DNA of 64,000 nucleotides from an uncultured Acetobacter sp. (GTDB lineage Bacteria; Pseudomonadota; Alphaproteobacteria; RF32; CAG-239): assembly GCA_964599945.1 (NCBI GenBank), contig CAZRHI010000001.1, positions 2,565 through 66,564 of the forward strand. Direction: 5' to 3'. A model generated the notes under the pieces. It searched no databases. It was not told the DNA's origin and saw nothing but the letters and a program-made list of their open reading frames with translations. Made by a program: the position numbers and the translations under genes. Shown here piece by piece: positions 19,647-56,412 of this stretch (position 1 is its first letter; every line of letters starts with the position of its first letter).

Positions 19647-19649
19647 GCT

Positions 19650-22061: not shown

Positions 22062-22696
22062 TGACTGACGAGCAAATTCAACAAGAACGTTTTAAAAAGG
22101 GAATTGCGTTATTTAATAAAAAATGTGATTTTGTCTTGAGTGTCGCAAACCTTAAACAACTTCCTGCTGATAATCTTCAAGAAATTGCCTTTGCAGGACG
22201 TTCTAACGTTGGCAAATCCAGCTTGATTAACGCTCTTTTTGGGCAGAGAAAACTTGCTAAAACTTCTTCAACCCCTGGGCGTACACAACAACTTAATTAT
22301 TTCAACCTTGATAATCAGATTTATGTGGTCGATTTGCCCGGGTATGGATTTGCTAAAGCACCTAAAGAAATCGTCAAAAATTGGCAAAATTTAATTAACA
22401 CTTACTTGGTGGGAAGAGCAAATTTGCGACGTGTTTTTCTCTTAATCGACTCTCGCCATGGCATTAAAAAAATTGATGAAGAGATTATGGATATGCTTGA
22501 TAAGGCTGCTGTTACCTATCAGGTTGTGCTAACAAAAATTGATAAAATTAGCAATATTGAGCTTGAGAAAACATTGATAGCGACACAAAGCATTCTAGCA
22601 AAGCATACGGCTGCGCATATAACTATTTTAAAAACAAGTTCTGAAAAGAATCTCTTTCTAGATGATTTGAAAGCCGAAGTTGCTGAATTACTTTAG
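22058..22696 (+). CDS. engB: ribosome biogenesis GTPase EngB/YsxC
   Basis: G1 motif GRSNVGKSSLINAL and a DLPGYG switch motif. Confidence 0.85.
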   Translation: MMTDEQIQQERFKKGIALFNKKCDFVLSVANLKQLPADNLQEIAFAGRSNVGKSSLINALFGQRKLAKTSSTPGRTQQLNYFNLDNQIYVVDLPGYGFAKAPKEIVKNWQNLINTYLVGRANLRRVFLLIDSRHGIKKIDEEIMDMLDKAAVTYQVVLTKIDKISNIELEKTLIATQSILAKHTAAHITILKTSSEKNLFLDDLKAEVAELL

Positions 22697-23673
22697 GTAA
22701 TTTCTGTGATTCCACGGATATTTCCGTCTCGAACTATTTGAACAACGTGTAGTCTGCGACGCATTTCTTGTATGGTTTTTTCTACATCAATATTCGGTTG
22801 TGTTCTCATGATACGCTTAACAAATGCTTCATACGCTGCAGTTGAATTTTCTGCGTGAATTGTGGCCAAGCAGTTATCATGACCTGACCCCATTAGCTCC
22901 CAGATTGCACCAGCATTACTTGTTGAGATTTCCCCTCCGATAATTGCATCTGGTGTAAAACGCACAATAAGGTCAATTACTTTAGAATAGTCCATGGTAT
23001 TGGTTTGCTCTGTACGCGATAAAACGATATGAACATGATTTGGCTGAGGAACATTAAGTTCTCGAGTATCTTCAACTGTAATTACTCGTTTATGTATATC
23101 TAGTAACTTTAAAAGATTATTTAATAATGTTGTTTTACCAGTTCCTGTACCACCGCTCACTAGAATATGATCGCCTCGACGTAGTGCCAATAGCAAACGT
23201 TCATACGCATCTTTAGGATCTTTGATATTTTTTAATGGATTTATTTCCTTTAATTCTTGCCCTTGAGCCAAGCCATAATCACCAAACCCAAAAGCAACAT
23301 CATCTGTATGCAAACGGATCGTTATAGCTATTCCTCCTGCCGCCGCATCATCTAAATCGTATTCAATATTTTTCCCTGCAACACCTGTAAAACGGTGTCC
23401 TCCTGGAATACGTGCATATACAACAGGCGAACCATTTATGGGGTCAAATTCCTGATCGTTTAAATTTGCAATAATATGCAATAAATTAGTTAGATATTCT
23501 CGACTTAGTTTAGGATCTTTGTAATTTACCCACGGAAAAGCTCGTTTGCCACGCAAGCGCAACCAAATATCCCCTGGATGGTTAATTGCCACCTCTTCAA
23601 TATTTTCTTGTTCATACCAATAGGCTAGCGGTCTAAGTACAGAACATAAAACTTGATCTTCCAGCTTTCCCAT
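22693..23673 (-). CDS. virB11: T4SS ATPase VirB11
   Basis: Walker A GGTGTGKTT, the RVITVEDTREL Asp box and a His box, 326 aa. Its 3' end overlaps engB convergently by 4 nt. Confidence 0.9.
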   Translation of the reverse strand: MGKLEDQVLCSVLRPLAYWYEQENIEEVAINHPGDIWLRLRGKRAFPWVNYKDPKLSREYLTNLLHIIANLNDQEFDPINGSPVVYARIPGGHRFTGVAGKNIEYDLDDAAAGGIAITIRLHTDDVAFGFGDYGLAQGQELKEINPLKNIKDPKDAYERLLLALRRGDHILVSGGTGTGKTTLLNNLLKLLDIHKRVITVEDTRELNVPQPNHVHIVLSRTEQTNTMDYSKVIDLIVRFTPDAIIGGEISTSNAGAIWELMGSGHDNCLATIHAENSTAAYEAFVKRIMRTQPNIDVEKTIQEMRRRLHVVQIVRDGNIRGITEIT

Positions 23674-23750
23674 CAGTATCTCCCATTTAATATCTTGCTT
23701 TGTTTTAGTTTAACATACTTATTTTTCATAGTCAACGTGTCCATTCTTAC

Positions 23751-26700
23751 TTAAAATAACTCAATATCTCCAGACATTTCATCATCATCTTTTGGATAAT
23801 CGGCTACTGTTCCATCTGCTGCTGGTGGTGGAATCGCTCCTGGAGCTGTGTTCTTTTGTTGTTTTTGTTGCCCATTGCCATTATTGCTAACTAGTGTAGC
23901 TCCTTGCTGTCCTTGTTTATTCTGAGCATTATTTGTATTTGAATTGTTATTTGTTTCTACCTTAGTTTCATTTCCGCTTCTATTAATCAAAATATTTTCT
24001 GCTTTTGTATTATTTAAGGTATCTTCCCCTTTTTCGATTTCTTTTGTACTTTTTAGCCACAAATCTGTCATTGGATAAATAATAATGCGTGTTCCTGCTG
24101 GTACATAAGTAACAGCTTCTATGTTTGATTTACTTTCGATAATTTCATCTAAGATGCTATTCATTTTATCTATAAACTGTTGACGCGCATCTGATGCTGC
24201 TTGTTGTTTTGATGTTTCAACCTCGCCTGTTGCATCTTCGTTTGCAGCCATTAAATATGCCATAGCTGATGTTGCTACTGTTCCAACTAATGGCATTGTA
24301 TACTTCTTCAACATCTGTTCATCAACATAACCGAGCGCACCACCACCTCGACCTTGAGCATCACCTGTTTGACTACTACTATCCAATATAAAAGCAATAC
24401 CATCTGGACGAATTATTCTATCCCACGTAATGTCTAACTTTACACCACCGCTTGTTCCATCAAAACGACTACCATTTGAGATATTACTTAGCCCACCGAT
24501 AATTCGGCTTCCTGCTGGAATAATTACATTGCGTCCCATATCTCCATAAATATTTCTTTCTACGATTGCTGTAATCGGCGCACTTCCTAATGATATTAAA
24601 GAGCGCGCAAGAACTGCTGGTATTGGCTTATCGGCTGTTATCATATTGCTCATATCAACTCGAAGACTAGATATTGAGCGTTCTACACCTGGCCAATTAT
24701 CTTGCCAACCAGTATAGGAAGTAGCATCAAATTGACTAGAAATAGATTTCCCTGACATGGACTGACGGCGATTATTCTGAAGTTGAGCAATAATAGCTGC
24801 ACGACGCGGATTATATCTTCCCCCTGGGCCAATCCCTCCCCCCGGGCCAACATTCACAGCTTCATTGTTTGTATTATATGGTGAGGCTGTTACCCCATTC
24901 ATAATACTTCTCCACCAATCTTTATCGACTGATTTATTTTTTTCTGTATCTTTTTCTTGGTAATTGCCAATAACATTGCCGTTTGCATCAACAATCTCTC
25001 CATTTTTTCCGCGGCTTCCGATGATGTTACCATGGCTATCTATAACATCGTTATTGCTATAGACATCACCGATATATTTTCCCCCTGGGGTTACTGCAAT
25101 TCCAACAATTTTATGTTTCGCCATCGTATTATTAACACGTTCTCTATCTATATTATACTCAGGCTCTTCTGTTTGGGAACTAATAATAGGTTCTTCAATC
25201 TGGTTATTGATATTTGTTTCTATTATTGTATTGTCTTTAATGTTTTCTTTTTCAGAAGGACTTGTTGGAGTAAGAACAGTTTGTTGCTCTGATACTATAT
25301 TATTTTTCTCTGGAAGTGTTTCTTGTTTGGTTTCTCTATGGTAATATTGCAGCGTATAAGCATTGGCAATAATTTCCCCAGAAGTGTCAACCACTTCACC
25401 TTTATCATTCAATTCTCCCACTTTGATATTTTTATGGTTAACTACACTTCCATCAAGATTTAAGTATCCAATTATCTTATTTTCTTTGTTTCGAATAATA
25501 TAATCCCTTTTGCCCCGAGCAATTAAATTTTGTTTTTTATCTAATACAAATCCTTTATAAATACTCCCTTTGACATCCCCCATAACGCTATATACTGTTC
25601 CATTTTTTGCAATATAGCCAACTGTTTTGCTGTTATTATCATATACATACAAATCATATAAAGCGAATCCACTATTACCGTTTTCTAAGGTTACAGAACC
25701 ATCAAAGTTAACCTTTCCTAAAACTTCTCCTACATCAGATAATACTGTTCCTGATGCATCCACTCGTCCTAGATATGTGTTGTTATCATCAAATGCCACA
25801 TTATATTTGAATATGCTCCCTATGTTTGCTCCATTGTTAGAATACACACCTTCATCTGCCCTAATATAGCCTGCTTGATTACCAATGCCGTCTATTACTT
25901 TTCCTGAAAAATCTACTTCTCCGATTATTGTATTATCATACCCCATAACTGATGCTGAGGGAATTATCTGACCAACAATTTCATTTTGAGAATTTCTTAT
26001 ATAGCCATTTATATCTTGGCAACCTAAATTGCGATTATCATAATTTAAAACTGTTCCCAATGGGGTTTCAACCCCTAAAATTTCCCCATTATCGCCTATA
26101 ACTGCTTGCGGATGAATTATATAACCAATAACTTCCTCTGTTTCGTTTACAACTTGATTATTGGCAAGGACTGTTCCAATATATTTCCCGTTAAAGTTTT
26201 TCACATCTCCATTATCTGATACAACACCTAAAAATTTGCAGTCTGGCTTTACCGCTACGCCAAATTCTAATGTTTTACCATATAAAGCACCTGCATTATC
26301 AAGAACATATTTATCTGAGCTTATTTTTCCGACAATTTCTCCCGCTGTTTTAATTTGTCCATCGGGATAATTCGCCCCCAAATAATCACCGTTAATACTT
26401 ATACTTAATGCTGAATTTCCAGCATATCCTCTCATTTGGTTTGATAAGATGATTTGATTATCTGGTAAAATTTTTGCAATAGTTTGATTTTGATTGTTTA
26501 TAATTAAATTAGACGGATTTGTATATCCTAACAAATTTCCATAAAAATCTGTCGCATAGTCTGCTATTAAAGCATTTCCTAGTAGTTTGTTATTTTTATC
26601 TAGAAGTAGCCCTGCTGAAGTTAGTTTGGCGATTTCATTCAAAGAAGCACTTTCTGTTTTTCCTAAGCCTGATGTATATGCCAAAATCTTTCCTTTATCT

Positions 26701-28028
26701 GCAATAATATTTGCAAAAGCATAATTTCTTCCTACAACTGCCCCTTTTTCATCAAATACATATCCGTATGGCGAAATTGTATATTCATTTCCATCTGCAT
26801 TTAAGCTTGTGGAGATACCATTAACACCAATAAACGTATTAAATGATGTGTAATTTAAAAGATTATTTAGAACGCGTCCAAATTCTTTACCTTTACGATC
26901 TATTGCTTTATTTTTTTGCGTGTATCCAAGTTCTGCGCCATCTAACGATATTATTTTTCCATCAACCGCAGCATTCGCACGTAGATTTCCTAAATAATCA
27001 AATATTGGCCCCACAGAGTTTATTGTTCCAATGACAACACCATTATTATTTACAACATTACCTGACGCACCAATTTTCCCTATAATTTGCTGAGATTTTA
27101 TGACATTTCCATTTGATACTAAACGTCCCAAATATTTCCCGTCTAGGGTATTGGCTGTGGCATTAGAACTAACTGCAAACCCCTGTAATTCTCCGTCTTT
27201 GCTGATGATACGATTGCCGACCACAGCAGAGCCAACAACTCTTCCTTTATCAACCACTTCACCATTATAACTTATGCTTCCAAGATAACTGCCATCCAGA
27301 TTAAACGCATATCCACTTTCAACAATATGCCCAATAACATTATTATCCGCATTATACACAAAGCCGTTTGCATGGATATTACCAATGACGGTCTTTTTCA
27401 AATCAACTACTTTTCCGTCTGGCGCAATACTTCCTAAAAAATTCCCCAAATTATCTATTACCATTTTAGAAGATATAAGTTTTCCAACAAGGGTCGTTTT
27501 TTGATCTGTTCCTTGAGGCGCAAAAACATATCCTGTTGCGGTTACATAACCTTTTTTTTCACCAGATAAACTATAGAAATTTCCATCGCCAGACACACGT
27601 CCCACAATTTTCCCTTTATCATCGTAGACAACTCCTGGGGCTATTACTGCACCTAAAACATCATCATTATCATTAACAACAAGTCCGTTTGGTAACACTC
27701 GTCCAACTAAAACATCGTTTAGAGAGGTTACTGTACCGTCATTATTTACCTTTCCTAGCACACTGTTTGTTATTGAAATGGCAACACCTTGTGGAACAAT
27801 TCCGCCAATTAAGATATTATCTTCATTTACAGCAAAACCGTCAGCCGTAATATGTCCAATCAACTCATTATCAAAATCGATAACAGAACCGTCTGGAATT
27901 ACTTTTCCTATTAAATTTCCATCAAAATCTAATGCACTAATATCTGCAGCTTTCAGCTCAGTCGAAACACTTACGAGCAAAAGCACACTCAGTATAATGC
28001 GTTTTAATTTTGATATTTTAATCTGCAA
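23751..28028 (-). CDS. virB10: VirB10/TrbI homolog with a ~1000-aa repeat-rich N-terminal extension
   Basis: The C-terminal ~350 aa carry the VirB10 barrel-domain signature (IPAGSRIIGG...ITWDRIIRPDGIAF...GALGYVDEQ). N-terminus has a signal/TM segment followed by DGxxIGxV repeats and Q/N/T-rich linkers. Confidence 0.8.
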   Translation of the reverse strand: MQIKISKLKRIILSVLLLVSVSTELKAADISALDFDGNLIGKVIPDGSVIDFDNELIGHITADGFAVNEDNILIGGIVPQGVAISITNSVLGKVNNDGTVTSLNDVLVGRVLPNGLVVNDNDDVLGAVIAPGVVYDDKGKIVGRVSGDGNFYSLSGEKKGYVTATGYVFAPQGTDQKTTLVGKLISSKMVIDNLGNFLGSIAPDGKVVDLKKTVIGNIHANGFVYNADNNVIGHIVESGYAFNLDGSYLGSISYNGEVVDKGRVVGSAVVGNRIISKDGELQGFAVSSNATANTLDGKYLGRLVSNGNVIKSQQIIGKIGASGNVVNNNGVVIGTINSVGPIFDYLGNLRANAAVDGKIISLDGAELGYTQKNKAIDRKGKEFGRVLNNLLNYTSFNTFIGVNGISTSLNADGNEYTISPYGYVFDEKGAVVGRNYAFANIIADKGKILAYTSGLGKTESASLNEIAKLTSAGLLLDKNNKLLGNALIADYATDFYGNLLGYTNPSNLIINNQNQTIAKILPDNQIILSNQMRGYAGNSALSISINGDYLGANYPDGQIKTAGEIVGKISSDKYVLDNAGALYGKTLEFGVAVKPDCKFLGVVSDNGDVKNFNGKYIGTVLANNQVVNETEEVIGYIIHPQAVIGDNGEILGVETPLGTVLNYDNRNLGCQDINGYIRNSQNEIVGQIIPSASVMGYDNTIIGEVDFSGKVIDGIGNQAGYIRADEGVYSNNGANIGSIFKYNVAFDDNNTYLGRVDASGTVLSDVGEVLGKVNFDGSVTLENGNSGFALYDLYVYDNNSKTVGYIAKNGTVYSVMGDVKGSIYKGFVLDKKQNLIARGKRDYIIRNKENKIIGYLNLDGSVVNHKNIKVGELNDKGEVVDTSGEIIANAYTLQYYHRETKQETLPEKNNIVSEQQTVLTPTSPSEKENIKDNTIIETNINNQIEEPIISSQTEEPEYNIDRERVNNTMAKHKIVGIAVTPGGKYIGDVYSNNDVIDSHGNIIGSRGKNGEIVDANGNVIGNYQEKDTEKNKSVDKDWWRSIMNGVTASPYNTNNEAVNVGPGGGIGPGGRYNPRRAAIIAQLQNNRRQSMSGKSISSQFDATSYTGWQDNWPGVERSISSLRVDMSNMITADKPIPAVLARSLISLGSAPITAIVERNIYGDMGRNVIIPAGSRIIGGLSNISNGSRFDGTSGGVKLDITWDRIIRPDGIAFILDSSSQTGDAQGRGGGALGYVDEQMLKKYTMPLVGTVATSAMAYLMAANEDATGEVETSKQQAASDARQQFIDKMNSILDEIIESKSNIEAVTYVPAGTRIIIYPMTDLWLKSTKEIEKGEDTLNNTKAENILINRSGNETKVETNNNSNTNNAQNKQGQQGATLVSNNGNGQQKQQKNTAPGAIPPPAADGTVADYPKDDDEMSGDIELF

Positions 28029-28029
28029 A

Positions 28030-31000
28030 TCAGTTCCTCCGATTTTGAGCGACTTCTTCTAACACATAGCCGGAAACTTTGTTTTTTGTATTTACATATG
28101 AGCCATTGCTCTTTAAATATCCTATTTTTCCATTTGTAATACTTAACACACTACCATCTGGCGACAATCGTCCGAGGTATTTTCCGTCATTGCTTAATAT
28201 ATTAGCACCTATTTTATAGGTATGTCCTATAATTTTTCCATTGTTATCTACAACTAAATTTGATGAAATAACTTTTCCTATGACTGAACGTTCTTGATTA
28301 AGAACTTTTCCTTCCATATTTACAAAACCTATCACCTTGTCTTGTTCGTTGATGACAATATCGCCGTCAACAATTTCACCAATTAATTGACCTTTATCGT
28401 TTATAGCTTTCCCTGAATTTAATATCTTGCCTATTCTTACATTATTTTCACCCATAACCGAACCGTCTGCCACAACTTGTCCAATAACACGGCCAGAATA
28501 ATCAAGCACGACTCCTTGTCTCATGATACTATAATTTTTATTGGAATTCCCCCCTGGTAGGGCTGTGGTTAACACACTATCGTTTATATCAATAATATCT
28601 CCTAGAGCATTTAGATAGCCTTTTATATTCCCAAAGACATCAATAACCAAATTTTCTTTTATTACTTCGCCCACGATAACTTTATTAACATCTAGAATAT
28701 GCCCATCTGCGCTGATGAAACCACTTATACTACCGTCAACATCAATGACTTTACCACTTTTGCTAACATATCCTAGGTATGTGCCGTCATATCCTATACC
28801 TACACCTGTTTTGACAACACCACCTTTATATTCACCTTTATCATCAAACATTCTACCTTTGGCATCTACCCAGCCTAATTTTTTACCATACAGATTTATT
28901 ACATCTGCATTATCATTTACAAAACCTATATAATTACCATAAAAATCAATAACATTTCCTTTAGGTAATACTTTTAATGGCTTTCCAGAATTAAACGCAT
29001 AGCCGTCAAAAGTAATTTTATCAACCGCAACTCCTTTAGTATTATAAACATATCCGTCTGCAAAAATTCTACCAACAATCCGTCCATTTGCATCTACTAT
29101 AACATTTTTCTCAGGGAAAATTACCCCTTTTGCTATTTTTTTATTATTAACTAATAGATGATTTAATAAAATTTTTGTTTCAGGAATAACCTCTTGGCTA
29201 TTGTAATTGTATTGAGATAGATTATTGATAAATTCTCCAGATAAGTTATACGCCTGTGTCTTATCCATTATCTGACCAACAATAAAGCCATCTCTGTTTA
29301 GTATTTCTCCTTCCAAATTTGCACAACCAATAATATTTTTCCCAGAACTAACTGTTCCATTAGGACTGATTATGCCCATCATTTCGCCATTATAATATGT
29401 CGCATAACTGGCTTCGTAGACTTTACCAATTAGCTTTCCATCTGGATTTAAAACACCGCCATCTGGATTAACACACCCGATATACTCACCCTCTTCATTA
29501 CGAGCATAGCCGTCCGCACCTACTTTTCCTATAATATTACATTTGTTATCTCGTATCCAGCCAATTTTTATGACATCGCCAACGTATTTTCCGTCTTTAT
29601 CAACGATGCTTCTATCAAATAGCATTCTATAACCAGTTTCCTTATTATCTTTTTTAACATATCCGTCTTTATCAACGTATCCGTAATAAGTACAGCCCCA
29701 ACCAACAGCCATACCGCCAATGACAGCTTTTCCTATAATTTTTTTACCGTCTTTACTACGAATTAAATAATTTGGTAAAACTTTTCCGACTATTTCTTCT
29801 TTATTGTTAATAACATCACCATTATTGCCGATACGCCCAAGGCTATATCCATTAGGGGACATTGCTATCATATCCTTTTTAATGACCGCTCCAATTTTTA
29901 TACCTCTAGATGTTATAACATTTCCGTCTTCATCAACGAATCCAATAACAATATTGTTTAAATCGCGTACTTTTCCGTCGCTTCCCACATACCCGATAAT
30001 GTTACCCTCATCATCTACAACAAGATTTGAATAATTACCAACGACGCCTATAATATCTCCGTTTGCATCTATCGTAAATTCCATATCTTTTCCAGTTCGA
30101 CCAATGATGTTTCCGTCTTTATCTTTAATTGAACCGTCAGATTGTACTGTACCTAAAATATTCCCTTCAAAATCTCGTGCTATTCCGTTTTCATCAATGT
30201 AACCTATTACGGTGCCATTTTCATCTAAGACAGCTTTGCGTTTTATAATATTTAATTCACTATTTCCTTGTGATGATAAACGACCAATAATTTCTCCATT
30301 GCTACCATATACTGTACCGTCTTCAGATACAATGCCTACAATCTTTCCGTCATTACCAATTACTAGCCCATTTTCATCTATATAACCAATAATATTACCA
30401 TTTTCATCAACAGCCACTTTGGCATATTCACCCTCATAACCTATCAAATTACCATTCATATCATGTATTGTGCCATTTTCACCTAAATAGCCAATTAAAT
30501 TACCTTCAAAATCATGAACACTTCCTGTTTCATCAATGTATCCAATAACATTGCCGTTTTCATCATATGCCAAACGTTTGCTTATTCCTGCCGTACCTAA
30601 TATTTCATCTGTGATACAATATACATTTCCAAAATCATCAATAAAACCTAATAACTCATCATTTTCTTGATGTATTTTTTCATCTGTTCCTAAATAACCA
30701 ATGACATTTCCACTTTCATCTTGAGCAAACTCTACTAGTCTACCAACCTTACCAATATTGCGATCATATTCATCAACAATAATGCCTGTGGGGCGAGCTT
30801 TACCTATGTTTCGACCAGAGAAGTTAAATACTGTATTGTTCTCGCCAATATAGCCTATTGTTTTACCACTAGGACTTTGCGCAAGTAAGCCTCTTCTCCC
30901 GACTGTTGCAATTACTTCGTTAGTGTTTTTATAGATTTTGCCATTATCATCAAGAAATCCAACAAGTTTGTTTTTAAAATCTTTAATATTGCCATTATCC

Positions 31001-48139: not shown

Positions 48140-48826
48140 CTATTCCTCTTCTTCGTTTTCTCTATTATATTGCATTAGCTCTTTTACTGCTTGAGCTTGG
48201 AACATATAACTTCTTAATTCAAGAATTCTGGCTATGCGCGCATCACTATTTCGAAGCAAAGTTCCTTGAGCAAATATAAGTTCGTCCATATTGTCGTTCT
48301 CAAAATCTCTATTGTATAATTCTGTATCCTCTTGCATAAGATTTTGTTTGGTAACCATTCCTTTTGCAAACAATATGGCAATATTATCTATTACTATCGC
48401 ATTATTTTCTTGTTTTAACTGATCGCGACGTGAAATATCATCTCCTGTTCCTTTTTTGTATGTTCCATCTTCTTTAATACTCTCCGCTAATTTTTCAGCA
48501 TCTTTTTTCATTAAATCCCCACTTTGGAGTTCTCCACCTACTGTGCGGATACCATCTATCTTTGTTTTTGTATCTTTTGCAAAATTACTTACCTCATCAT
48601 AACATTTTAGAGGATTTGCAAAACAGTTTGTTGCCATGGCAAACCCTTGACGAACTGTTTTTTCTGCATCTTGTATTATTTTAACGGCTTCTTGAATTTG
48701 GTTTTCAATAGTTTGCTTTAACTTTAACCCTGATTGCAATGTGGCCATAGGGTCAAGAATTGCATACACATTTTTGGAGTATACAAGCAATGAAAATATC
48801 AATAGTAGAAATACTCTTTTTTTCAT
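48140..48826 (-). CDS. virB5: VirB5/TrbJ-like minor pilin, paralog 3 (228 aa)
   Basis: Signal peptide, about 220 aa helical protein of VirB5/TrbJ size and composition. Confidence 0.5.
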   Translation of the reverse strand: MKKRVFLLLIFSLLVYSKNVYAILDPMATLQSGLKLKQTIENQIQEAVKIIQDAEKTVRQGFAMATNCFANPLKCYDEVSNFAKDTKTKIDGIRTVGGELQSGDLMKKDAEKLAESIKEDGTYKKGTGDDISRRDQLKQENNAIVIDNIAILFAKGMVTKQNLMQEDTELYNRDFENDNMDELIFAQGTLLRNSDARIARILELRSYMFQAQAVKELMQYNRENEEEE

Positions 48827-48831: not shown

Positions 48832-51075
48832 TTACTCCTCGTCGTAACGTTGATCAAAATAATTGTAACCAATTTTTGGCAGATATTTTAAAATATCCGT
48901 TTGCAAATTTTGCGCGTCCGCCTCTACTATGCTTAATATCTGCATGGTTGTATAATAGTTAATTTGCGCACCAGAAGCATAATCATTTACAGCAACAGTG
49001 TTTTGTTTCATATCCTCTTGTAGGCTGGCAATATTTGTTTCATTATCCTCTACTTTTGCATAATCTTTGCTTGATTTATAATTATTTATTGTGGCGAGTG
49101 TTAAAGTTTGGAATGATGTATCATTTATTGCTTTTATTGCTTTTTCTTTCCATGTTTTAGAACACTGCTCTAGTGTTTGGTTCTCTGCCGAGCAATAGTT
49201 TTCTTTATCTTTTTTATATCTACCATTTGCGGCAGCGGCATATTGGAACAAGCACTTTGAAATATTTCTCTCTGCAGCTCCTGTTTGTGTTTTATCAAAT
49301 TTACTCTCTGGTGCAACGGATATATCCTCTGCATCTTGGCCACAATTATATAAAAAAAGATTGGAAAATATTTGACGCTCCTCTGTTCCATTTTTTGTTT
49401 GGATATTTTTCATTAACCCTGGTTTACTACTGTTTGCATTGCTAAAATCTTTATCTCGACCATCTAAATATAATGTTTTTCCAGTTTTAAATTGTTGCGT
49501 AGCTTCTTTAGAACGTTGCAACGCATCTACTGTTCGGAGCATACTCCACAATCTGGGAGCTTCAATTTCTATCATTCCTAAATTCACATTGGCATTTCGA
49601 GTATTATCCACACTTTTTTCCAATTTACTTAACTGTGCTAATGTCCCATTTTCATCATACAACCACGAAAAAATATATTGTTGGATACGACTATTATTTT
49701 GAATATTTGCGATTGAATAATCTTCTACGATATGCGCATACACTCCATTTTTTCGGTGTGCTTTATATAACTCTTTGGCATTTGCATCCATTGTGTATGG
49801 ATCAAGATTACATTTATCACTAGATATTCCTTTTTTTACACAGACGTAGTCCTTTTCTGCTTTTGCCAATGTAACACATTCTCTGAATTTATCTGCCTTT
49901 TCTCCTAATTTTTTTAAATCATTTTCGTTTCCAAAATCTTTGCATAAAAGTTCTTTGGGAAGAATATATGTTTTGTACTCTTTGTTATTTTTATTTACAT
50001 ATATTCCTTTCGCATTGGATAGTTGATGATTTGAACTGTACTGAAAAAAATATTGTTGGTTATTTTTCATTAAAAAACTTAATTTTTCAGGTTCTTCATC
50101 TTCTTCCGAATATTCCCTACTATTACTTTGGCTATTTAGTATTTCCTCTTGTAATTTTTGCGCACCACTAATGAGTTCTTCGGCAATTTGTAATAAATTA
50201 TCGACAACATTTTCATCCCATGGCAGTGGATTTGAGGCGATGTCCTGTTGTAGTTTCTCCCCTGCTTGGTCTAATTCTTCTCTACTGATTTCACCTGCAT
50301 AATATGCTGCAATTTTTTGGCTATACTCATCAAAGCTATTTTGAATATTTTGAGCATATTCTGTGTCTAATTGCGTTTGTGCTGAATTTATAATATTTTC
50401 TGCCATTGTTTTGAGAAGTTCTGCCTTTTGCAATAACTCTTCTGCCTGACTTTTATATTCTTCGCGCTCTTCTTCTGTTAACTCATCACTCTGTTCTATT
50501 ACTGGAATTATTGTTTTTATGGTTTCAACAACTTCGGTGGTCATATCTTCTATTTGCACACCTGTTTCTTTCATTTTATCCTCTAGTTCTTGTTTTTGTT
50601 CTTCTATTTCCTCTTGAGAATCTTTAAGGGTACTTTGCACTTCCTCTTCTGTTGCCCCATTATCTATTTGAGAACCAACATTCTGCACGGTTTCTGTTAC
50701 CGTGTTGTTGACTGTTTGTACTGTTGATGTTACTGTATCCTTTATATTAGAAAATGCGTCTTTTAAACTTTTATCTATCTGAATACTTGATAAATCAAAT
50801 TCTCCTATTTTAGCGACTACATTTTTCAAATCAGCCATATATTTTGTAACGTTTGTAACTTGGTCGCCCACAGAATTTATGGTTTGTATTGTATTTTCTA
50901 TTTGGCTTTTAGTATTTGCAACTTGCGAAACGCCATTACTTATTCCAGAGATAAACGCCCCAACCTGAGCAAAGTCAAATGTTGGCCAAATAAATGCAAC
51001 AGCAGGACGTACAGCCATTATGCTACATATCGCTATGACGATTATACTTCTTTTAGCTTTTGTCCTTATACTCAT
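48832..51075 (-). CDS. VirB5-like N-domain fused to a long coiled coil and a Cys-containing C-terminal globular domain (747 aa)
   Basis: N-terminus AFIWPTFDFAQVGAF...QIENTIQTINSVGDQ parallels the 356-aa paralog (GIPTFDII...). C-terminal third has 10 Cys residues. Confidence 0.45.
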   Translation of the reverse strand: MSIRTKAKRSIIVIAICSIMAVRPAVAFIWPTFDFAQVGAFISGISNGVSQVANTKSQIENTIQTINSVGDQVTNVTKYMADLKNVVAKIGEFDLSSIQIDKSLKDAFSNIKDTVTSTVQTVNNTVTETVQNVGSQIDNGATEEEVQSTLKDSQEEIEEQKQELEDKMKETGVQIEDMTTEVVETIKTIIPVIEQSDELTEEEREEYKSQAEELLQKAELLKTMAENIINSAQTQLDTEYAQNIQNSFDEYSQKIAAYYAGEISREELDQAGEKLQQDIASNPLPWDENVVDNLLQIAEELISGAQKLQEEILNSQSNSREYSEEDEEPEKLSFLMKNNQQYFFQYSSNHQLSNAKGIYVNKNNKEYKTYILPKELLCKDFGNENDLKKLGEKADKFRECVTLAKAEKDYVCVKKGISSDKCNLDPYTMDANAKELYKAHRKNGVYAHIVEDYSIANIQNNSRIQQYIFSWLYDENGTLAQLSKLEKSVDNTRNANVNLGMIEIEAPRLWSMLRTVDALQRSKEATQQFKTGKTLYLDGRDKDFSNANSSKPGLMKNIQTKNGTEERQIFSNLFLYNCGQDAEDISVAPESKFDKTQTGAAERNISKCLFQYAAAANGRYKKDKENYCSAENQTLEQCSKTWKEKAIKAINDTSFQTLTLATINNYKSSKDYAKVEDNETNIASLQEDMKQNTVAVNDYASGAQINYYTTMQILSIVEADAQNLQTDILKYLPKIGYNYFDQRYDEE

Positions 51076-51119: not shown

Positions 51120-52190
51120 TTAACTTTTTGTTTCTTTTTGTATAGCATCTACTATTTCGGTAATTTTCTTTATTAAATTTTCAGTATCCTTTTGCAAACT
51201 TGCCACTGTTGCGTTCACCTCTTTTAAAACAGAAGAATCTGGTGTTACATTTATTGCATTCACATCATTTTTTAATTTTTCTCCTGCAATAATTACAGCA
51301 TCTTGGCTCGAATCTCCTTTAATATATTCGATTACGATTTTTGTATAATTATTGATACCATCTTTAATTTTGGCATTATACTCTTTGTTATAATTTTCTT
51401 TGGCTTGTTCTATAATATTTGCAGCCCAATTACCAACATCTTTGTATTTCTCTAATATTTCGCTGATTTCTTCTTTGATTTTTTCTTTATCTTGTTTAGT
51501 GATTTCCTCTGCCGTTTCTATTGATGTCTGAAGCTTAAGCAATGAAGCTGTATTTTTTGCCACCGCTTCATTTAACATGGTTAATTGGTTGTCTAGTATG
51601 TCATTTAATTCTATGGCTAGTTGCTTTTGTTCATCCGCTGTTTCTTTTTGCAACAAGAAAATTTCTTTTTCTTGCTCACTTATATCAATTTCCTCTTCCT
51701 CTTCTTCTTCGATAAGCACACTTCTGCTCCCTGGTCTATCTTTTGAGTTACCAGAGGGGTGGTTGCCAATACCTATTGTTTGCTGGGTTTGATTTACATA
51801 ATCACCTGTAATACCTTGCTGATTATTTACCGTATTTTGTATCGCATTTGAGACACTACTTGTGGCTTGTCCTATTGTATTGGTTAAATTTTCACCTACC
51901 GAGATTACATTATTAAATGTATCAACCATATCATTTAGATCTTGAACAAACCCTTGTAGAAAACCCGCAATACTGCCAATCTCAGAACCGATGGCATTTA
52001 GAGTTTTCTTCATCTCGTCAATTTGTTTTTTTAAATCTTTTAATGTGTCTATATCTGTCTTAAGATCTTTAAACACCATTGGAACATCTTCTATAATGTC
52101 AAAAGTAGGGATACCTAGCGCAACTGCATCAAATGCAAATAAGTATGCACATAAACTGAGAATAGCTCTGTATTGCTTACTCTTTCTCAT
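51120..52190 (-). CDS. VirB5/TrbJ-like secreted protein, paralog 1 (356 aa)
   Basis: Signal peptide, GIPTFDIIEDVP N-motif, helical with an acidic EEEEEE tract. First gene after virB4, as in trw/virB operons. Confidence 0.45.
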   Translation of the reverse strand: MRKSKQYRAILSLCAYLFAFDAVALGIPTFDIIEDVPMVFKDLKTDIDTLKDLKKQIDEMKKTLNAIGSEIGSIAGFLQGFVQDLNDMVDTFNNVISVGENLTNTIGQATSSVSNAIQNTVNNQQGITGDYVNQTQQTIGIGNHPSGNSKDRPGSRSVLIEEEEEEEIDISEQEKEIFLLQKETADEQKQLAIELNDILDNQLTMLNEAVAKNTASLLKLQTSIETAEEITKQDKEKIKEEISEILEKYKDVGNWAANIIEQAKENYNKEYNAKIKDGINNYTKIVIEYIKGDSSQDAVIIAGEKLKNDVNAINVTPDSSVLKEVNATVASLQKDTENLIKKITEIVDAIQKETKS

Positions 52191-52256: not shown

Positions 52257-54710
52257 TTATCCTCCTAAACCATCTAAGTACTTCGTTACGAAACCATCTT
52301 CTCCATATTCTTTTACCAATTCATCAACCAATAAAACGTTTTTAATACCCGAATTATAAAGTTTAAGATATGGTCCTATTCCACCCAAATTAACATCTAG
52401 TACGACAGACTCACCCTCACCATTTTCCCCTGCGTCAGGACGCTTTATCAAAATCGCATAAGGGCAATCTCTATACGAGCGACCACATATAAAATTGTAC
52501 TCACTATCTGTTAAATTCCATTTTGCATAAGACTCTGGAGTTGCTTGTGTATTGCGGAAAAATATCATAGTTTTACATTGCCCACGTACGGCATCTCCAA
52601 CGCCTAAATCATCTACAATATTTGGTTGTTGGAAAGCACATAAATAGGCCTGACGTTTTTTACGCCCTTCTTGCAAACCCTTAATAAACGCATCTCTAAA
52701 CATTTCATGCTTTAACATTGGGGCGGTTTCATCTATCATAACCAATGCTGGCGTACCTGTTTCAGTACTTTCTGATTGGATACGATGCATAATATAGCTA
52801 ATAGATGCCGCTGCTAATGTTTCATCATCAAATATTTCTGTAAAATCAAACGCCACAAAACGATTTGTGCTTAAATCCAAACTATCATGTTCTGCATTAA
52901 AAATGTTACCATATTGATCTGGATTTACCCAGCGGAATAATTCTCTACGCATATTTCCTGTTGGAGAAAAGCAACTTTTATATAAATTGCTTAATACTCG
53001 CTCTTCTGGCTTGAGATAATCAAATGCTGTTGTTACTGCTCGGGCAGACTCTCGTTCGGAAAGAGCATCTGAAGACATTGTAATCGCTTTTAACCAATTT
53101 CGCAAGAAAGCTCGGTTACTTAATGTATCTCGCGTATCAAATGGATTTAATGAAACATTTTTTCGTTCTCCACTAAAACCCACATATGCTCCTTTAACGG
53201 TATGGGTAAAGATTTCTGCACCACGGTGGCGGTCAAAGAAGTAAACTTTCAAATCTCCATGGCGCATAGCTTGTCCTGCTAAAAATGTCAGCAATGTTGT
53301 TTTACCTTGTCCTGTTGGTCCAACAATACAACAGTGTGCCACCGCTGACTCGGCTGCGGAAATATGGAATTGGAAACGATATGGCGAACCGCTCATGGTT
53401 CTGAATACACTAATTGCACCTTCACCCCAGTCGCTCCGTGGCAAACCTGTTGATAGTTGTTCAAAAGATACAGCCAGCGATACTATACGGGATAGGTAGA
53501 AATATGTTCTACCGCACATATCATACCCAGGGAATTGGTTGAAAAATGTCGCCTGAGCTATCCAGTTTTCACGAACAGGAGTAACACTAAACAAACGACA
53601 AATACGTTGAATCTCACTTTCTCCAAACAGCACTTCTTCCAAGGTGTTCCCTTTTAATATGAAGCTCATAGAATATTCGATAAGTGATTGGTGATCTGCA
53701 TCGCTATCTTCGATTGCTGACAATGCTTCACTATATTGCGCAACTACATCACCTGAAAAACTTGTTACTTCTGCCATTTTTTGTTGTTGAACAAGTATAG
53801 CTCTTGCTTTGGGCTTAAACAATGGGTGGATATGATGCAATAATGTTAACTCACAATCTATTGACAACAACGCGGAAACCATATTCTCGTCCATATAATC
53901 ACCAGAAGTTCTGATGCCCATTGTTAAAGCGTATTTTTCCTTTTCGCCAGAAAAAAACTTTATTATTCCCTCTTCTCCTGTAAAGTGAATACCATCTGCG
54001 GTTAACATCTCTTTGAGTTGGAAACCTTGCGCTCCTCGTATTTTGGGTTTAGGATTACTTATTGGATTTAAGATGCGTACAAAAGGATATATCGGACTTA
54101 GTTCTGCAGGAGTTTCATCATCTTCAAACAGAACTTTAACCCCATAATCATTTAAGTTTGCAATAACTGACTGCGAGGCAAAATTCAAATCTTTGACAGC
54201 CTCTTTTCTATCTTCTATTGAAATTACGATGTAATGGTCATTTTTATATACACGACTCAGATTTTCACGCCAGACATCATCGACAATTTTTAACCATTTG
54301 TTCCCAAAATCATCTTTATTTTTTTCCATTGGAACACGTTCTCTTATGGTTATGACACGACAAGTTATCTGCAAATCCGCCATATTGTCTAACCATGCTT
54401 TACGGGCCTCAAACATAGATAAAATAGTTTCTTCTCTCGCGGACGTTAAATCCACACCTTGGACTTTAAAAACACGTACATATGAACCATTACTACAACG
54501 TAATGTTGACCCATCTGACAACAAACAATCAAACGGCAAAAAATCCGCAACACGAGACTCTCTTGGTTGAGGAAGAATCCATGTTCCCACTTTGGAAACT
54601 AGCGTAACAATTATTGCTGTCGCCATTATGATTCCCAAAACTGCAACAAGAGCTTCAGAGCTTTGCAAGCCCTCTCTAAAGAGTGTATAAAAATCAAAAT
54701 TAAGGTTCAA
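52257..54710 (-). CDS. virB4: T4SS ATPase VirB4/TrbE/CagE
   Basis: 817 aa, Walker A GPTGQGKTT and a Walker B region. Overlaps virB3 by 11 nt. Confidence 0.9.
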   Translation of the reverse strand: MNLNFDFYTLFREGLQSSEALVAVLGIIMATAIIVTLVSKVGTWILPQPRESRVADFLPFDCLLSDGSTLRCSNGSYVRVFKVQGVDLTSAREETILSMFEARKAWLDNMADLQITCRVITIRERVPMEKNKDDFGNKWLKIVDDVWRENLSRVYKNDHYIVISIEDRKEAVKDLNFASQSVIANLNDYGVKVLFEDDETPAELSPIYPFVRILNPISNPKPKIRGAQGFQLKEMLTADGIHFTGEEGIIKFFSGEKEKYALTMGIRTSGDYMDENMVSALLSIDCELTLLHHIHPLFKPKARAILVQQQKMAEVTSFSGDVVAQYSEALSAIEDSDADHQSLIEYSMSFILKGNTLEEVLFGESEIQRICRLFSVTPVRENWIAQATFFNQFPGYDMCGRTYFYLSRIVSLAVSFEQLSTGLPRSDWGEGAISVFRTMSGSPYRFQFHISAAESAVAHCCIVGPTGQGKTTLLTFLAGQAMRHGDLKVYFFDRHRGAEIFTHTVKGAYVGFSGERKNVSLNPFDTRDTLSNRAFLRNWLKAITMSSDALSERESARAVTTAFDYLKPEERVLSNLYKSCFSPTGNMRRELFRWVNPDQYGNIFNAEHDSLDLSTNRFVAFDFTEIFDDETLAAASISYIMHRIQSESTETGTPALVMIDETAPMLKHEMFRDAFIKGLQEGRKKRQAYLCAFQQPNIVDDLGVGDAVRGQCKTMIFFRNTQATPESYAKWNLTDSEYNFICGRSYRDCPYAILIKRPDAGENGEGESVVLDVNLGGIGPYLKLYNSGIKNVLLVDELVKEYGEDGFVTKYLDGLGG

Positions 54711-54990
54711 ATTTGTGTCCTTTCACCTTGTATAAATTTGTTGTTACAACATTTGTATTACCAAAAGCCTGCAACATTCCTGATAAATGCGGATCTTTTG
54801 TACCTAAAGCAACAACAACAAGGTGTCCTAACACGATTGTCATAATAAAAATTAAGGGGTTTGTTTGCCAGATACCAACACTCATAAACATAAATGGAAT
54901 CTGTAATCCTGCGTTTAGGGCTGTTGGCAAAACTGGTCCCCAAAACAGTTTTGGTGGATTAGCTACCGCTTTTAGAATTATATCTCTCAT
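54700..54990 (-). CDS. virB3: VirB3
   Basis: 96-aa membrane protein with the conserved PPKLFWGPV region, directly upstream of and overlapping virB4. Confidence 0.75.
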   Translation of the reverse strand: MRDIILKAVANPPKLFWGPVLPTALNAGLQIPFMFMSVGIWQTNPLIFIMTIVLGHLVVVALGTKDPHLSGMLQAFGNTNVVTTNLYKVKGHKFEP

Positions 54991-55074
54991 CGCGTTTATC
55001 CTTTTGCTGATTTGCCTTTCTTTAAGTATACGGCAAAAATTCTTTCAAAACTGTTAATTTCAAAATTAAAAAAA

Positions 55075-55482
55075 CTATCGACCGAAACTACTATTGCCTT
55101 TTGATGACTTCGGTACTTTCATATCTCCTGCTTTAGGTTTTATTGTTTCTTGGTATGTATCTTTAAAATTGTATACAAGTTCTTGGTTTCCGCCTTTAGC
55201 ATAAGTTATGAGCGCGCCCATACCTGAAAGAAAGAATAAACTGATGGTGATGTATCCCAAATGTTTGAAGTTGATTTTGCCACAGATAGCTAAAAATGTG
55301 AACATCACCATACCAAAACCAGAAATAACATATGCTAGTTTACGAAGGCCTTCTGCAAACCCGCCAGTTCTTTGAGCTATATCATGGAAAACACCTGCTT
55401 TAGCGGCATATGCATCATTGCACAATAAAATAACAACTAAAGCACAACATAGACTTAAAATATATTTACATCTTATTGACAT
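55075..55482 (-). CDS. virB2: VirB2/TrbC pilin paralog 1
   Basis: Signal peptide plus two hydrophobic helices, about 135 aa. Likely start MSIRCK...; the upstream extension in the tracked ORF overlaps the neighbouring gene and is not credible. Confidence 0.65.
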   Translation of the reverse strand: MSIRCKYILSLCCALVVILLCNDAYAAKAGVFHDIAQRTGGFAEGLRKLAYVISGFGMVMFTFLAICGKINFKHLGYITISLFFLSGMGALITYAKGGNQELVYNFKDTYQETIKPKAGDMKVPKSSKGNSSFGR

Positions 55483-55492
55483 GACAATTCTC

Positions 55493-55831
55493 CTAGTTTC
55501 CACCCATAATATCAGCTGGAATTGAATCAACAGCATCTGGAGCAAACATTTCAACAAACATTACACAAGAACTAATTACAACTAATCCAACAACAATAGC
55601 TGTTAACCATTTCCAGTTAATATTACCAAAAAAGCCACCTATACACACTGCAATAATTCCCACTGCAGAAGCTGGATATATAATTTCTCGTAAACCTGTA
55701 AAAATATCCTTTCCTGCATCTGTTAAGGCTGTAAAATGTTCTCCGCCAGCCCAAGCCAAAGTAGAATAGCACATAACAAAAGCTACAGTTAAGCTGATAA
55801 TGATACTTTTTTTATTATTAAACTTGCACAT
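55493..55831 (-). CDS. virB2: VirB2/TrbC pilin paralog 2
   Basis: Likely start MCKFNNKK..., signal peptide plus two hydrophobic helices, about 112 aa. Confidence 0.65.
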   Translation of the reverse strand: MCKFNNKKSIIISLTVAFVMCYSTLAWAGGEHFTALTDAGKDIFTGLREIIYPASAVGIIAVCIGGFFGNINWKWLTAIVVGLVVISSCVMFVEMFAPDAVDSIPADIMGGN

Positions 55832-55927
55832 AATACCTATTCCTCCCAAGTTATTGTAATTATTATAGCACAAATATTAAAAATATTCCAGTAAAAAGAC
55901 CTTTTCCGTACTTTAAATAACCATATG

Positions 55928-55956
55928 ATTTAATTATTTTTTTATCTTTGTAACAA
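55928..55956 (-). promoter_or_regulatory. sigma70-like promoter of virB2 paralog 2/1 (and possibly the downstream operon)
   Basis: On the minus strand: TTGTTA (55956-55951), 17-nt spacer, TTAAAT (55933-55928). Preceded by the conserved motif GTGAAATTTTTGTTACA, which is shared with the promoter at 56512-56540. Confidence 0.5.
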
Positions 55957-55985
55957 AAATTTCACACTTATTTTTTATACAAAAA

Positions 55986-56013
55986 CACCCTCTGTGATTT
56001 AACACAGAGGGTG
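55986..56013. terminator. hairpin terminator after virB2 paralog 3
   Basis: caccctctgtg-atttaa-cacagagggtg perfect 11-bp stem with T-runs on both strands, 20 bp downstream of the stop at 56035. Confidence 0.6.
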
Positions 56014-56034
56014 CTTTTGCGTTTTATCAGGTTA

Positions 56035-56412
56035 TTAGCTACCGCTGCTAGCTACATCACCCTCACCACTGTTAACAAAGGTATCAACAATGTCGTTAGA
56101 GTGTTGATCACCACCCATTTGAGCACCAGTTGCGTAGTTAACGATTGTACCAGCTGCAGCCAAGATAGCAAGACCTACTGCAAGACCTGCAAACCATGTC
56201 CATTTAACTTTTCCGAAGATTGCTTGGAAGGCAATACCCACTAAACCAAAACCACCTACAACGAAAATAATCATTTTTACATGGTTGAAAATTCTTACTG
56301 CTTTACCAGCAGCAACATCCATTACGCTTTCAGCATGAGATGCATCTGCGAACAATACTGTAAATACTAATGCCAATGAGCAGAGTATAAACATTTTCTT
56401 TAAGTTTCTCAT
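56035..56412 (-). CDS. virB2: VirB2/TrbC pilin paralog 3 (likely the major pilin, own transcription unit)
   Basis: 125 aa, signal peptide and two hydrophobic helices with a Gly-rich C-terminus. Flanked by its own promoter and terminator. Confidence 0.7.
   Translation of the reverse strand: MRNLKKMFILCSLALVFTVLFADASHAESVMDVAAGKAVRIFNHVKMIIFVVGGFGLVGIAFQAIFGKVKWTWFAGLAVGLAILAAAGTIVNYATGAQMGGDQHSNDIVDTFVNSGEGDVASSGS

Follow-up and report, generated by a model that had tools for sequence, protein, structure and literature searches.

Results

Gene content and core components of the locus

The window analysed in this study, a 64,000-nt stretch of contig CAZRHI010000001.1 from an uncultured Acetobacter sp., contains a 33.7-kb block of 17 minus-strand open reading frames (ORFs) at positions 22693-56412 which, judging by the predicted proteins, encodes a genuine VirB-type (type IVA) secretion system in heavily remodelled form. 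In the direction of transcription, the first half of the block comprises three virB2 pilin genes and the genes for a VirB3-like protein, the ATPase VirB4, four secreted helical proteins and a protein of 1683 aa, here called X. The second half encodes two VirB8 proteins, a 62-aa lipoprotein, VirB9 (761 aa), a giant protein of 3151 aa, here called Y, VirB10 (1425 aa) and VirB11. All 17 ORFs, their strand and the sizes of X, Y, VirB9 and VirB10 agreed with an initial annotation, which had read the block as a type IV secretion system (T4SS). This reading held in profile searches, with VirB4, VirB9, VirB10 and VirB11 all matching T4SS families in Pfam, NCBIfam or the PDB. The NCBIfam equivalog scores fell far under the trusted cut-offs throughout, which marks the system as divergent. 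Among the components expected of a type IVA system, VirB2, VirB3, VirB4, VirB8, a core of VirB9 and VirB10 with a small lipoprotein, and VirB11 were recovered, whereas a polytopic VirB6/TrbL protein and the canonical topology of VirB10, in which a cytoplasmic N-terminus, an inner-membrane helix and a proline-rich linker precede the C-terminal barrel, were not. The GC content of the block is that of its flanks. All coordinates given below for T4SS features refer to the minus strand. A set of 166 related loci (2.76 Mb in total), among them ~80 VirB9-centred loci with flanks of ±10 kb and 80 pilus-centred loci, was used for comparison.

The VirB4 ATPase (817 aa; 52257-54710) carries an N-terminal hydrophobic helix and matched PF03135 (CagE_TrbE_VirB) with 39.7 bits at a cut-off of 21. 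It was also recognised by TIGR00929 with an E value of 6e-111, yet the score of 372 bits lies below the trusted cut-off of 643, again indicating divergence. Its match in the PDB was TrwK of R388 (1.4e-44), and its Walker A motif is intact (GPTGQGKT at residue 464). VirB11 (326 aa; 22693-23673), whose gene overlaps the convergent engB by 4 nt at its 3' end, matched TIGR02788 (E value 8e-47) and Brucella VirB11 in the PDB (2e-23), and likewise retains its Walker A motif (GGTGTGKT). The VirB3-like protein (96 aa; 54700-54990), whose gene overlaps the start of virB4 by 11 nt, gave no match in Pfam, NCBIfam and PDB searches. By BLASTP, it matched the PGAP-annotated VirB3 of the Microvirga plasmid pMVF16-3 (7e-7) and the equivalent protein of Paracaedimonas (2e-6), and a 96-aa gene was present at the VirB3 position in all relatives examined.

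VirB8 (251 aa; 39768-40523) matched the Pfam family of this name with 63.1 bits. A second, bitopic paralogue named VirB8' (266 aa; 40879-41679) reached 35.2 bits, is 26% identical to VirB8 and was kept in all loci. Between them lies the gene for the 62-aa lipoprotein (40546-40734), which has the lipobox LAAC and a conserved PCAC motif. It matched a 58-aa protein at the corresponding position of the Microvirga plasmid (BLASTP, 1e-10), is 55-92% identical across loci and was assigned as the VirB7 equivalent by position only. VirB9 (761 aa; 37482-39767) consists of CagX/VirB9 domains (CagX 50.6 bits, cut-off 34.2), a Gly/Asn/Ser-rich linker of ~330 aa and a C-terminal SPOR domain (21.4 bits), which was found in 16 of 16 VirB9 homologues. 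Three tandem repeats of 102 nt (34 aa; DNA positions 38267-38567, 86% identity) lie in the linker and explain much of the extra length of this protein over its relatives (518-690 aa). A search of the VirB9 family profile against the PDB found nothing, and the literature library searched held no paper combining VirB9 with a SPOR domain.

The giant protein Y and VirB10

Y (3151 aa; 28030-37485) starts with a 16-residue cytoplasmic stub, followed by a transmembrane anchor (residues 17-35), a non-repeat domain of ~190 aa and a long region of beta-hairpin repeats. The motif THSxRYVRKTNRIILIVGI in the anchor region was kept in more distant relatives and occurs in a variant form in the sub-clade of the window. 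The hairpin units are 17-18 aa long and follow the motif [DN]xxGxxIG, with 107 strict matches at a modal spacing of 17 aa and an estimated total of ~170 units. Super-repeats of 104 aa were also apparent, seen at the DNA level as a tandem array of 10.9 copies of 312 nt with 74% match (32634-36104). The Pfam family Bflower_2 (PF21785) matched Y in 36 stretches with 766 bits (cut-off 38).

VirB10 (1425 aa; 23751-28028) begins with a signal peptide and continues with ~1000 aa of hairpin repeats, a linker, the TrbI/VirB10 barrel and an acidic low-complexity tail. The TrbI profile matched residues 1130-1325 with 94.9 bits (cut-off 35), and the barrel with its antenna helices was placed at residues 1125-1330. 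Bflower_2 matched the repeats with 155 bits (cut-off 38). Canonical VirB10 is expected to span the envelope from the inner to the outer membrane and to be anchored in the inner membrane (PMC9371333). In the window and in all relatives, by contrast, the N-terminus of VirB10 is a signal peptide of the cleavable type (AxA/QEITA in relatives), directly followed by the repeats. The enlarged VirB10 of the initial annotation is thus non-canonical: the inner-membrane anchor is replaced by the signal peptide, and only the C-terminal barrel is canonical. Residues 30-1037 of VirB10 are 25-27% identical to the Y repeats over ~1000 aa (E value 1e-103), which identifies the two as paralogous modules.

Both Y and VirB10 share with the beta-flower proteins (clan CL0395) the match to PF21785/PF21784 and the [DNEQ]xxG motif at the hairpin tip. 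This fold was named in 2023 (Durairaj et al.), with its function unassigned (PMC10584680). The described beta-flowers are small single domains of ~100 aa, whereas Y chains an estimated ~170 hairpins within a secretion locus.

Repeat arrays are error-prone in assembly, and the Y stop and the VirB10 start lie 1 nt apart in different frames, with like repeats on both sides. A repeat mis-assembly, or a single giant VirB10 frameshifted into Y and VirB10, was therefore considered as an artefactual origin of the two genes, and was given next to no weight. In 66 of 66 loci with a complete Y, which stem from many studies and different assemblers, Y was an ORF of its own, and VirB10 starts with a separate, conserved signal peptide; a Y-VirB10 frameshift or fusion was rejected on these grounds. 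Moreover, the DNA repeats match each other at only 74% and are hence assemblable. Two products of the window, VirB11 and the 747-aa protein described below, have identical counterparts on contigs of the Logan assembly of run SRR9335148, and identical proteins also occur in an NCBI record. An assembly chimera, against which the initial annotation had cautioned, is excluded by the recurrence of the gene order, including both giant genes, in ~80 independently assembled genomes. From these comparisons the gene structure appears settled, while the exact repeat copy number of Y in the window is less certain. In the 66 loci Y measured 1144-2516 aa, so that the window form, at 3151 aa, is the longest seen. 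The shortest (1144 aa) corresponds to residues 1-225 plus 2202-3151 of the window protein, which thus has an internal amplification of ~1980 aa, and length differences within the close sub-clade are approximate multiples of 52 aa. VirB10 ranged from 1389 to 1569 aa in relatives.

Secreted helical proteins and protein X

Four genes at the position of virB5 encode secreted helical proteins. The first (356 aa; 51120-52190) has a signal peptide followed by the motif GIPTFD, represents a paralogue restricted to the close sub-clade and gave only weak matches of coiled-coil type. The second (747 aa; 48832-51075) has a signal peptide followed by WPTFD and a Cys-containing C-terminal half, and is the first gene at the VirB5 position across the whole clade. 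Its AlphaFold2 model had a mean pLDDT of 48.6 and was confident only for residues 95-318, which form a long helical bundle; a Foldseek search with this model returned designed or generic helical bundles and no VirB5. The remaining two, of 228 aa (48140-48826) and 452 aa (46768-48126), also start with signal peptides. A family profile of the 228-aa protein (25 members) found only coiled-coil noise in the PDB, and the N-terminal ~70 aa of the 452-aa protein aligned with the 228-aa and 747-aa families (hhalign probability 94-96%).

X (1683 aa; 41699-46750) is predicted to be a secreted, elongated helical protein rich in cysteine (36 Cys). It occupies the position normally held by VirB6, is restricted to this clade and, apart from its signal peptide, belongs to no detectable family. 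Among 1.84 billion proteins, only 80 representatives of X were found, at 1053-2028 aa barring short fragment-like entries; complete copies in relatives measured ~1240-1990 aa. Signal peptides are common to X and the four proteins at the VirB5 position, and the helical N-termini of these five can be aligned with each other over 60-70 residues.

The initial annotation listed four VirB5-like proteins. Position, signal peptide, helicity and N-terminal motif agree with this label, including the P-T-F-D motif of two of them, which resembles that of the positional VirB5 proteins of plasmid relatives. However, sequence and structure searches did not confirm it: Pfam, NCBIfam, PDB searches with profiles of two family alignments and a member-by-member Pfam scan gave no VirB5 match. 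On the features named, the label is plausible but unproven.

Pilin genes and transcription units

Three pilin genes open the block. virB2a (125 aa; 56035-56412) matched TrbC/VirB2 with 35.8 bits (cut-off 27.9), and its product has a signal peptide, two hydrophobic helices and 36% identity to VirB2 of the Microvirga plasmid. virB2b (126-aa ORF; 55493-55873; TrbC 36.0 bits) is 27% identical to virB2a, its true start probably being an internal Met codon at ~55831. The third, more divergent paralogue, virB2c (55075-55557), probably starts at ~55482 and was recognised by TrbC (20 bits, below the cut-off of 27.9) and by BLASTP with virB2a (1e-8). Three VirB2 genes were likewise present in the close relatives L087 and L088.

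The genes had initially been taken as consistent with one long operon, with neighbours overlapping or within 20 nt. The single strand was borne out, but such close junctions account for only 9 of 16, the other seven measuring 22, 44, 66, 77, 84, 144 and 161 nt, and an intrinsic terminator with an 11-bp GC-rich stem followed by TTTTTGT lies directly after the virB2a stop codon (55986-56013). A 17-nt element, GTGAANTTTTTGTTACA, occurs in two perfect copies in the window (0.16 expected), both ~120-135 nt upstream of the start of a pilin gene, virB2a or virB2b. Copy 1 (GTGAAGTTTTTGTTACA; 56533-56549) lies 121-137 nt upstream of the virB2a start and is a candidate regulator or promoter element; copy 2 (GTGAAATTTTTGTTACA; 55949-55965) lies upstream of virB2b and is followed downstream by an extended -10 sequence (TGCTATAAT; ~55866-55874). 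The element was invariant in an intergenic alignment and occurred upstream of virB2 in the relatives L082, L083 and L088 and in 0 of 80 VirB9-centred loci. A scan for sigma-70 promoters was uninformative, showing no enrichment over shuffled sequences. Because of the terminator after virB2a and the repeated upstream element, at least two pilin-led transcription units are predicted, rather than simply one operon. The 17-nt element would be a candidate regulator-binding site common to these units and possibly to the divergent pilus operon described below, and virB2a, having its own terminator, probably encodes the major pilin.

Plasmid relatives and components absent from the locus

A search of 72,556 plasmids yielded the best VirB4 matches in Microvirga sp. 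VF16 pMVF16-3 (37% identity), Sphingosinicella (34%), Erythrobacter (33%) and 'Ca. Paracaedimonas' (30%). The Microvirga locus consists of genes for a MobA/MobL relaxase, VirB2, VirB3, VirB4, three small proteins, the 58-aa lipoprotein, VirB8 to VirB11 and VirD4. Such plasmids share with the window the gene order, the recognisable VirB3 and PCAC lipoprotein, a [PA]-[VT]-[LF]-D motif at the VirB5 position and 34-41% identity in VirB4 (37%), VirB11 (41%), VirB9 (35%), the VirB10 C-terminus (34%) and VirB2 (36%); the Microvirga system, too, is without a typical VirB6. They differ in having a relaxase and VirD4, a single VirB2 and a single VirB8, and in lacking X, Y and the hairpin repeats. VirB2 to VirB11 span 11.9 kb in Microvirga, with VirB9 of 550 aa and VirB10 of 590 aa, so that the initial estimate of about three times the usual size proved accurate for the 33.7-kb block. 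Y contributes 9.5 kb and X 5.1 kb to the extra ~22 kb; the remainder comes from the extensions of VirB10 and VirB9, from additional and larger helical proteins, from VirB8' and from two further pilins. None of the plasmid VirB10 proteins covered more than 20% of VirB10 from the window.

The gene order had initially been likened to the IncW (R388/Trw) backbone. As a generic VirB order this stands, whereas the IncW specificity does not, the nearest systems being those of alphaproteobacterial plasmids and R388 being distant. Nor is the backbone complete, for VirB6, VirB1 and a coupling protein are missing from the locus. Apart from the pilins, the proteins of the locus have one hydrophobic segment at most, and none matched the TrbL family in Pfam. 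In tblastn searches of the window and the 166 loci, a Pfam-confirmed VirB6 from Paracaedimonas (the relative with 30% VirB4 identity) found nothing below an E value of 1e-3, and the VirD4 and relaxase of Microvirga and a putative type IV coupling protein (T4CP) of Paracaedimonas found no match. No lytic transglycosylase (VirB1) was present in the locus, no relaxase, coupling protein or integrase among the window ORFs scanned, and nothing in tRNA and Rfam scans of the window.

A 441-aa protein with ~10 predicted transmembrane segments is encoded at 18029-19354 (minus strand), between gpsA and rnpA and ~3 kb from virB11. It had no match in Pfam or NCBIfam and none to a bona fide VirB6 by tblastn; since the VirB6 search missed it, it was not counted as the missing VirB6.

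Chromosomal setting and distribution

Among the 120 best-scoring clusters listed for VirB4, relatives with 67-89% identity all came from metagenomes or metagenome-assembled genomes (MAGs), and the few named members were Alphaproteobacteria or Pseudomonadota. A scan with a pattern built from the VirB9 alignment picked out 127 species-representative genomes. With one exception, their titles denote alphaproteobacterial or proteobacterial MAGs, under names such as 'Alphaproteobacteria bacterium', 'Acetobacter sp. 46_36', 'uncultured Azospirillum sp.' and 'Ca. Scatocola faecigallinarum', and the sources, where named, are animal guts (human, mouse, ruminants, chicken, rabbit). The clade is probably the GTDB order RF32. 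This order comprises uncultured, genome-reduced gut specialists with <2000 genes (PMC13155120). One locus, L044, lies on a 125-kb contig (CAVBCV010000002.1) in a bin named 'Lachnospiraceae bacterium', which is probably mis-binned or mislabelled.

The order X-VirB8'-lipoprotein-VirB8-VirB9-Y-VirB10-VirB11 was found in every sufficiently long locus (~80 independent gut MAGs). On the virB4 side, the number of pilins in relatives is two or three and that of the secreted helical proteins three or four, alongside the 96-aa gene, VirB4 and X. The chromosomal site was the same even where VirB9 identity between species falls to 50-60%. At the left boundary, virB11 is convergent with engB-yidC, a few kb from dnaA-dnaN-recF, an arrangement kept in at least 10 distant relatives. 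In the window (12433-22696), the T4SS lies less than ~10 kb from dnaA-dnaN-recF and directly beside rnpA-yidD-yidC-engB, and thus near the probable replication origin. If the origin adjoins dnaA, the 34-kb block would be transcribed toward it, head-on with replication; the GC skew is dominated by the coding strand and does not settle the orientation of replication.

The right neighbour, divergent from virB2a, is an R64-like or ICE-like type IVb pilus cluster (56685-64000, plus strand; ICE, integrative and conjugative element). In the window its genes code for a membrane protein of 446 aa, a TcpQ/PilL-like lipoprotein of 604 aa, a secretin of 542 aa and PilO (422 aa); a coiled-coil ORF comes next and is cut off by the window end. 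The cluster was followed in relatives (L082, L083, L087, L088, L096 and L156), and beyond this point it goes on in relatives with an ATPase, a platform protein, a type IVb pilin (Bundlin/PilS) and a small second ATPase of the T2SSE family. The latter measures 316-320 aa (L096, 16469-17419, minus strand; L156, 17163-18125, plus strand) and could be a PilT-like retraction ATPase. Adjacency of the pilus cluster to the T4SS was kept in four relatives, and in the two read that far F0 ATP synthase and other housekeeping genes follow. The T4SS and the pilus thus form a block of ~45 kb with housekeeping genes on both sides, and their conserved adjacency suggests that the two may work together.

Conjugative T4SSs are paired with an R64-like thin pilus in IncI plasmids and ICEs. 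With such a pilus cluster of R64/ICE type alongside and conjugative plasmid systems as closest sequence relatives, the locus could be read as the transfer apparatus of an ICE or as its decaying remnant. This is very unlikely and already largely refuted: no relaxase, T4CP or integrase was found in the window or the 166 loci and no tRNA gene in the window, and housekeeping genes flank both sides. The constant chromosomal site across distantly related species, a composition matching the flanks and intact genes conserved in 127 species point the same way, and a decaying relic is disfavoured because of this strong conservation. On this comparative evidence, the block is best described as a resident, vertically inherited feature of the chromosome and not as a mobile element.

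Comparison with other secretion systems

The initial annotation had placed the locus in the spirit of Helicobacter Cag and Bartonella Trw while matching neither, and the comparisons fit this view. Like the window, the H. pylori Cag system has enlarged VirB9 and VirB10 homologues, a giant repeat-containing VirB10 (CagY) and lineage-specific parts within 35-40 kb (PMC9371333). Its repeats, however, are unrelated to the beta-hairpins found here, and in the window the repeat module is duplicated into a separate membrane-anchored protein. Beyond the generic domain names CagX and CagE, the Pfam and NCBIfam scans detected no Cag-specific family (CagA, Cag3, CagM, CagL and others). Cag also possesses a coupling protein and a homologue of VirB6, its genes stand in a scrambled order, and it is an island acquired horizontally. 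Bartonella Trw resembles the window in its R388-collinear VirB order, multi-copy pilin and pilus genes, lack of a coupling protein and proposed role in adhesion, but keeps and amplifies VirB6 (TrwI) and has VirB9 and VirB10 of normal size. Trw is also close to IncW R388, from which the window system is distant (TrwK 1e-44, TrwE 1e-3). Multi-copy pilins and the lack of a T4CP in the locus agree with a Trw-like system, against which stand the distance from R388, the missing VirB6 module and paralogues that do not form tandem J-I-H units.

The rvh system of the Rickettsiales, like that of the window, is inherited vertically across an alphaproteobacterial order with reduced genomes, keeps VirB8 (in some families also VirB2) in duplicate and includes very large accessory proteins. 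It differs in its scattered loci, giant VirB6 paralogues, lack of VirB5 and possession of VirD4, whereas the window locus is contiguous and has no VirB6. An expanded core complex and, in DotG, a VirB10-type C-terminal domain are shared with Legionella Dot/Icm (PMC9371333). That system is of type IVB, has other parts and a DotG that keeps its N-terminal anchor. The C-terminal domain of DotG follows a long tandem-repeat region, as does that of VirB10 in the window, with repeats of a different type.

The main rival to the reading favoured below is effector translocation in the manner of Cag or rvh, in which a coupling protein and effectors encoded elsewhere would supply the machine with cytoplasmic substrates for delivery into a eukaryotic or bacterial cell, the giant proteins enlarging the core and mediating target recognition. 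As in the rvh system, the locus is chromosomal, belongs to the core of its lineage and has duplicated VirB2 (three copies) and VirB8 (two copies); both of its ATPases are intact. Enlarged VirB9 and VirB10 and lineage-specific extras recall Cag and Dot/Icm (PMC9371333), and the hosts, should they belong to RF32, are specialists with reduced genomes that probably rely on other cells (PMC13155120). On the other side of the balance, the locus has no VirB6, and the 64-kb window, the ±10-kb flanks of ~80 VirB9-centred loci and the 80 pilus-centred loci all proved free of a T4CP-like gene. Most type IVA systems carry the gene for the coupling protein within the cluster or next to it. Effector translocation is accordingly a possible but rather doubtful function.

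The C-terminal part of VirB10 pointed elsewhere. In the PDB its barrel matched H. pylori ComB10 (2bhv) with 2.7e-20 and TrwE of R388 with 1.4e-3, and on NCBIfam the protein scored 120 bits for ComB10 and 82 bits for VirB10. This affinity (23751-24800) contrasts with VirB4, VirB9 and VirB11, which point to alphaproteobacterial plasmids, and may be either a composition effect or real. Together with the chromosomal location and the lack of a coupling protein or relaxase in the window and loci, it would be in keeping with ComB-like uptake or release of DNA, in which environmental DNA is brought into the periplasm, perhaps with the help of the type IVb pilus. ComB systems are not known to have VirB11 or VirB5-like genes, whereas both VirB11 and several secreted helical proteins are encoded in the locus. 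The locus also has no VirB6/ComB6, and its VirB4 and VirB11 are nearest to alphaproteobacterial plasmids and Brucella, the closest relatives overall being conjugative alphaproteobacterial plasmid systems. DNA uptake would leave the giant repeat proteins and three pilins unexplained, and the likeness to ComB10 may reflect a common AT-rich composition. We consider such a role improbable.

Discussion

The comparison with plasmid systems shows, as far as gene content and similarity can tell, that the locus derives from the stock of compact conjugative systems found on alphaproteobacterial plasmids. Relative to these, it has acquired another VirB8, additional pilins, X and the other secreted helical proteins (four to five in all), a peptidoglycan-binding SPOR domain on VirB9 and two paralogous repeat modules, each of ~1000 aa or more. 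One of these modules replaces the N-terminal anchor of VirB10; the other forms Y, which carries the inner-membrane anchor.

In the mechanism proposed here, VirB4, VirB11, VirB3 and the two VirB8 proteins would constitute an inner-membrane motor. A pore in the outer membrane would be built from the lipoprotein, VirB9 and the C-terminus of VirB10, with the SPOR domain perhaps pinning it to peptidoglycan. Because the anchor is on Y and the barrel on VirB10, with homologous repeat modules in both and genes that are always adjacent, Y and the repeat module of VirB10 could jointly take the envelope-spanning role, as a 'split VirB10', and either enlarge the core complex or project from it, in line with other 'expanded' T4SSs. 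A pilus would be assembled from the three pilins, and the Sec-exported helical proteins and X may serve as parts of a stalk, tip or adhesin, or as cargo. Because no coupling protein, relaxase or VirB6 was found in the ~45-kb block bounded by housekeeping genes, a mode of action independent of a T4CP is most likely, by analogy with Bartonella Trw (adhesion) and Bordetella Ptl (export of Sec-delivered periplasmic proteins). The role of the system would then be contact with or adhesion to another cell or a surface, and possibly export of periplasmic proteins, perhaps together with the neighbouring type IVb pilus, but not conjugation.

The reading we favour is hence that of a vertically inherited core T4SS organelle which is non-conjugative and acts in surface contact, as a pilus or in secretion, and we give it about an even chance of being right. 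Several points weigh against it. The function is read wholly from the genes, the helical proteins are no more than putative VirB5 counterparts, and the repeats are assigned a beta-flower fold by Pfam profiles only. Genes for VirB6, VirB1 or a coupling protein could lie elsewhere in the genomes, the search having covered the window and the ±10-kb loci. Y is stable in length among close species (~2090-2100 aa in several), which disfavours rapid phase variation of the CagY kind, and a periplasmic domain of 3100 aa would, if extended, exceed the periplasm.

Within the favoured reading of a non-conjugative core organelle, a more specific picture can be drawn, which as a whole is speculative and rather unlikely. 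Here, the T4SS and the type IVb pilus would together be the contact and feeding organelle of an obligately cell-dependent lifestyle, with an architecture that has no precedent. VirB10 would be split into a half in the periplasm and outer membrane and a separate fibre, Y, anchored in the inner membrane; this fibre of chained beta-flower domains would measure tens of nm, its length being tuned by the repeat copy number. VirB6 and a coupling protein would be dispensed with, and the Sec-exported helical proteins, X among them, would be the exported stalk, tip or effector cargo.

A literature search turned up no publication about a T4SS in this lineage. Few 'expanded' T4SSs are known (Cag, Dot/Icm and F-type), each showing how the minimal VirB machine can be rebuilt. 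The locus seems to represent one more expansion, independent of these and with previously unreported parts, and we would read it as a fourth kind. Its unusual parts are a VirB10 with a signal peptide and no anchor, an anchored giant beta-flower paralogue, a VirB9 with a SPOR domain and an orphan giant, X, at the position of VirB6. There is a fair chance that they represent a new architectural solution, and the beta-flower fold gains a concrete cellular context. Because the T4SS is conserved at one site in >100 species of a widespread, uncultured gut lineage from humans, ruminants, poultry and rodents, it is probably central to the life of these small-genome bacteria and offers a lead for studies of their cultivation and ecology.

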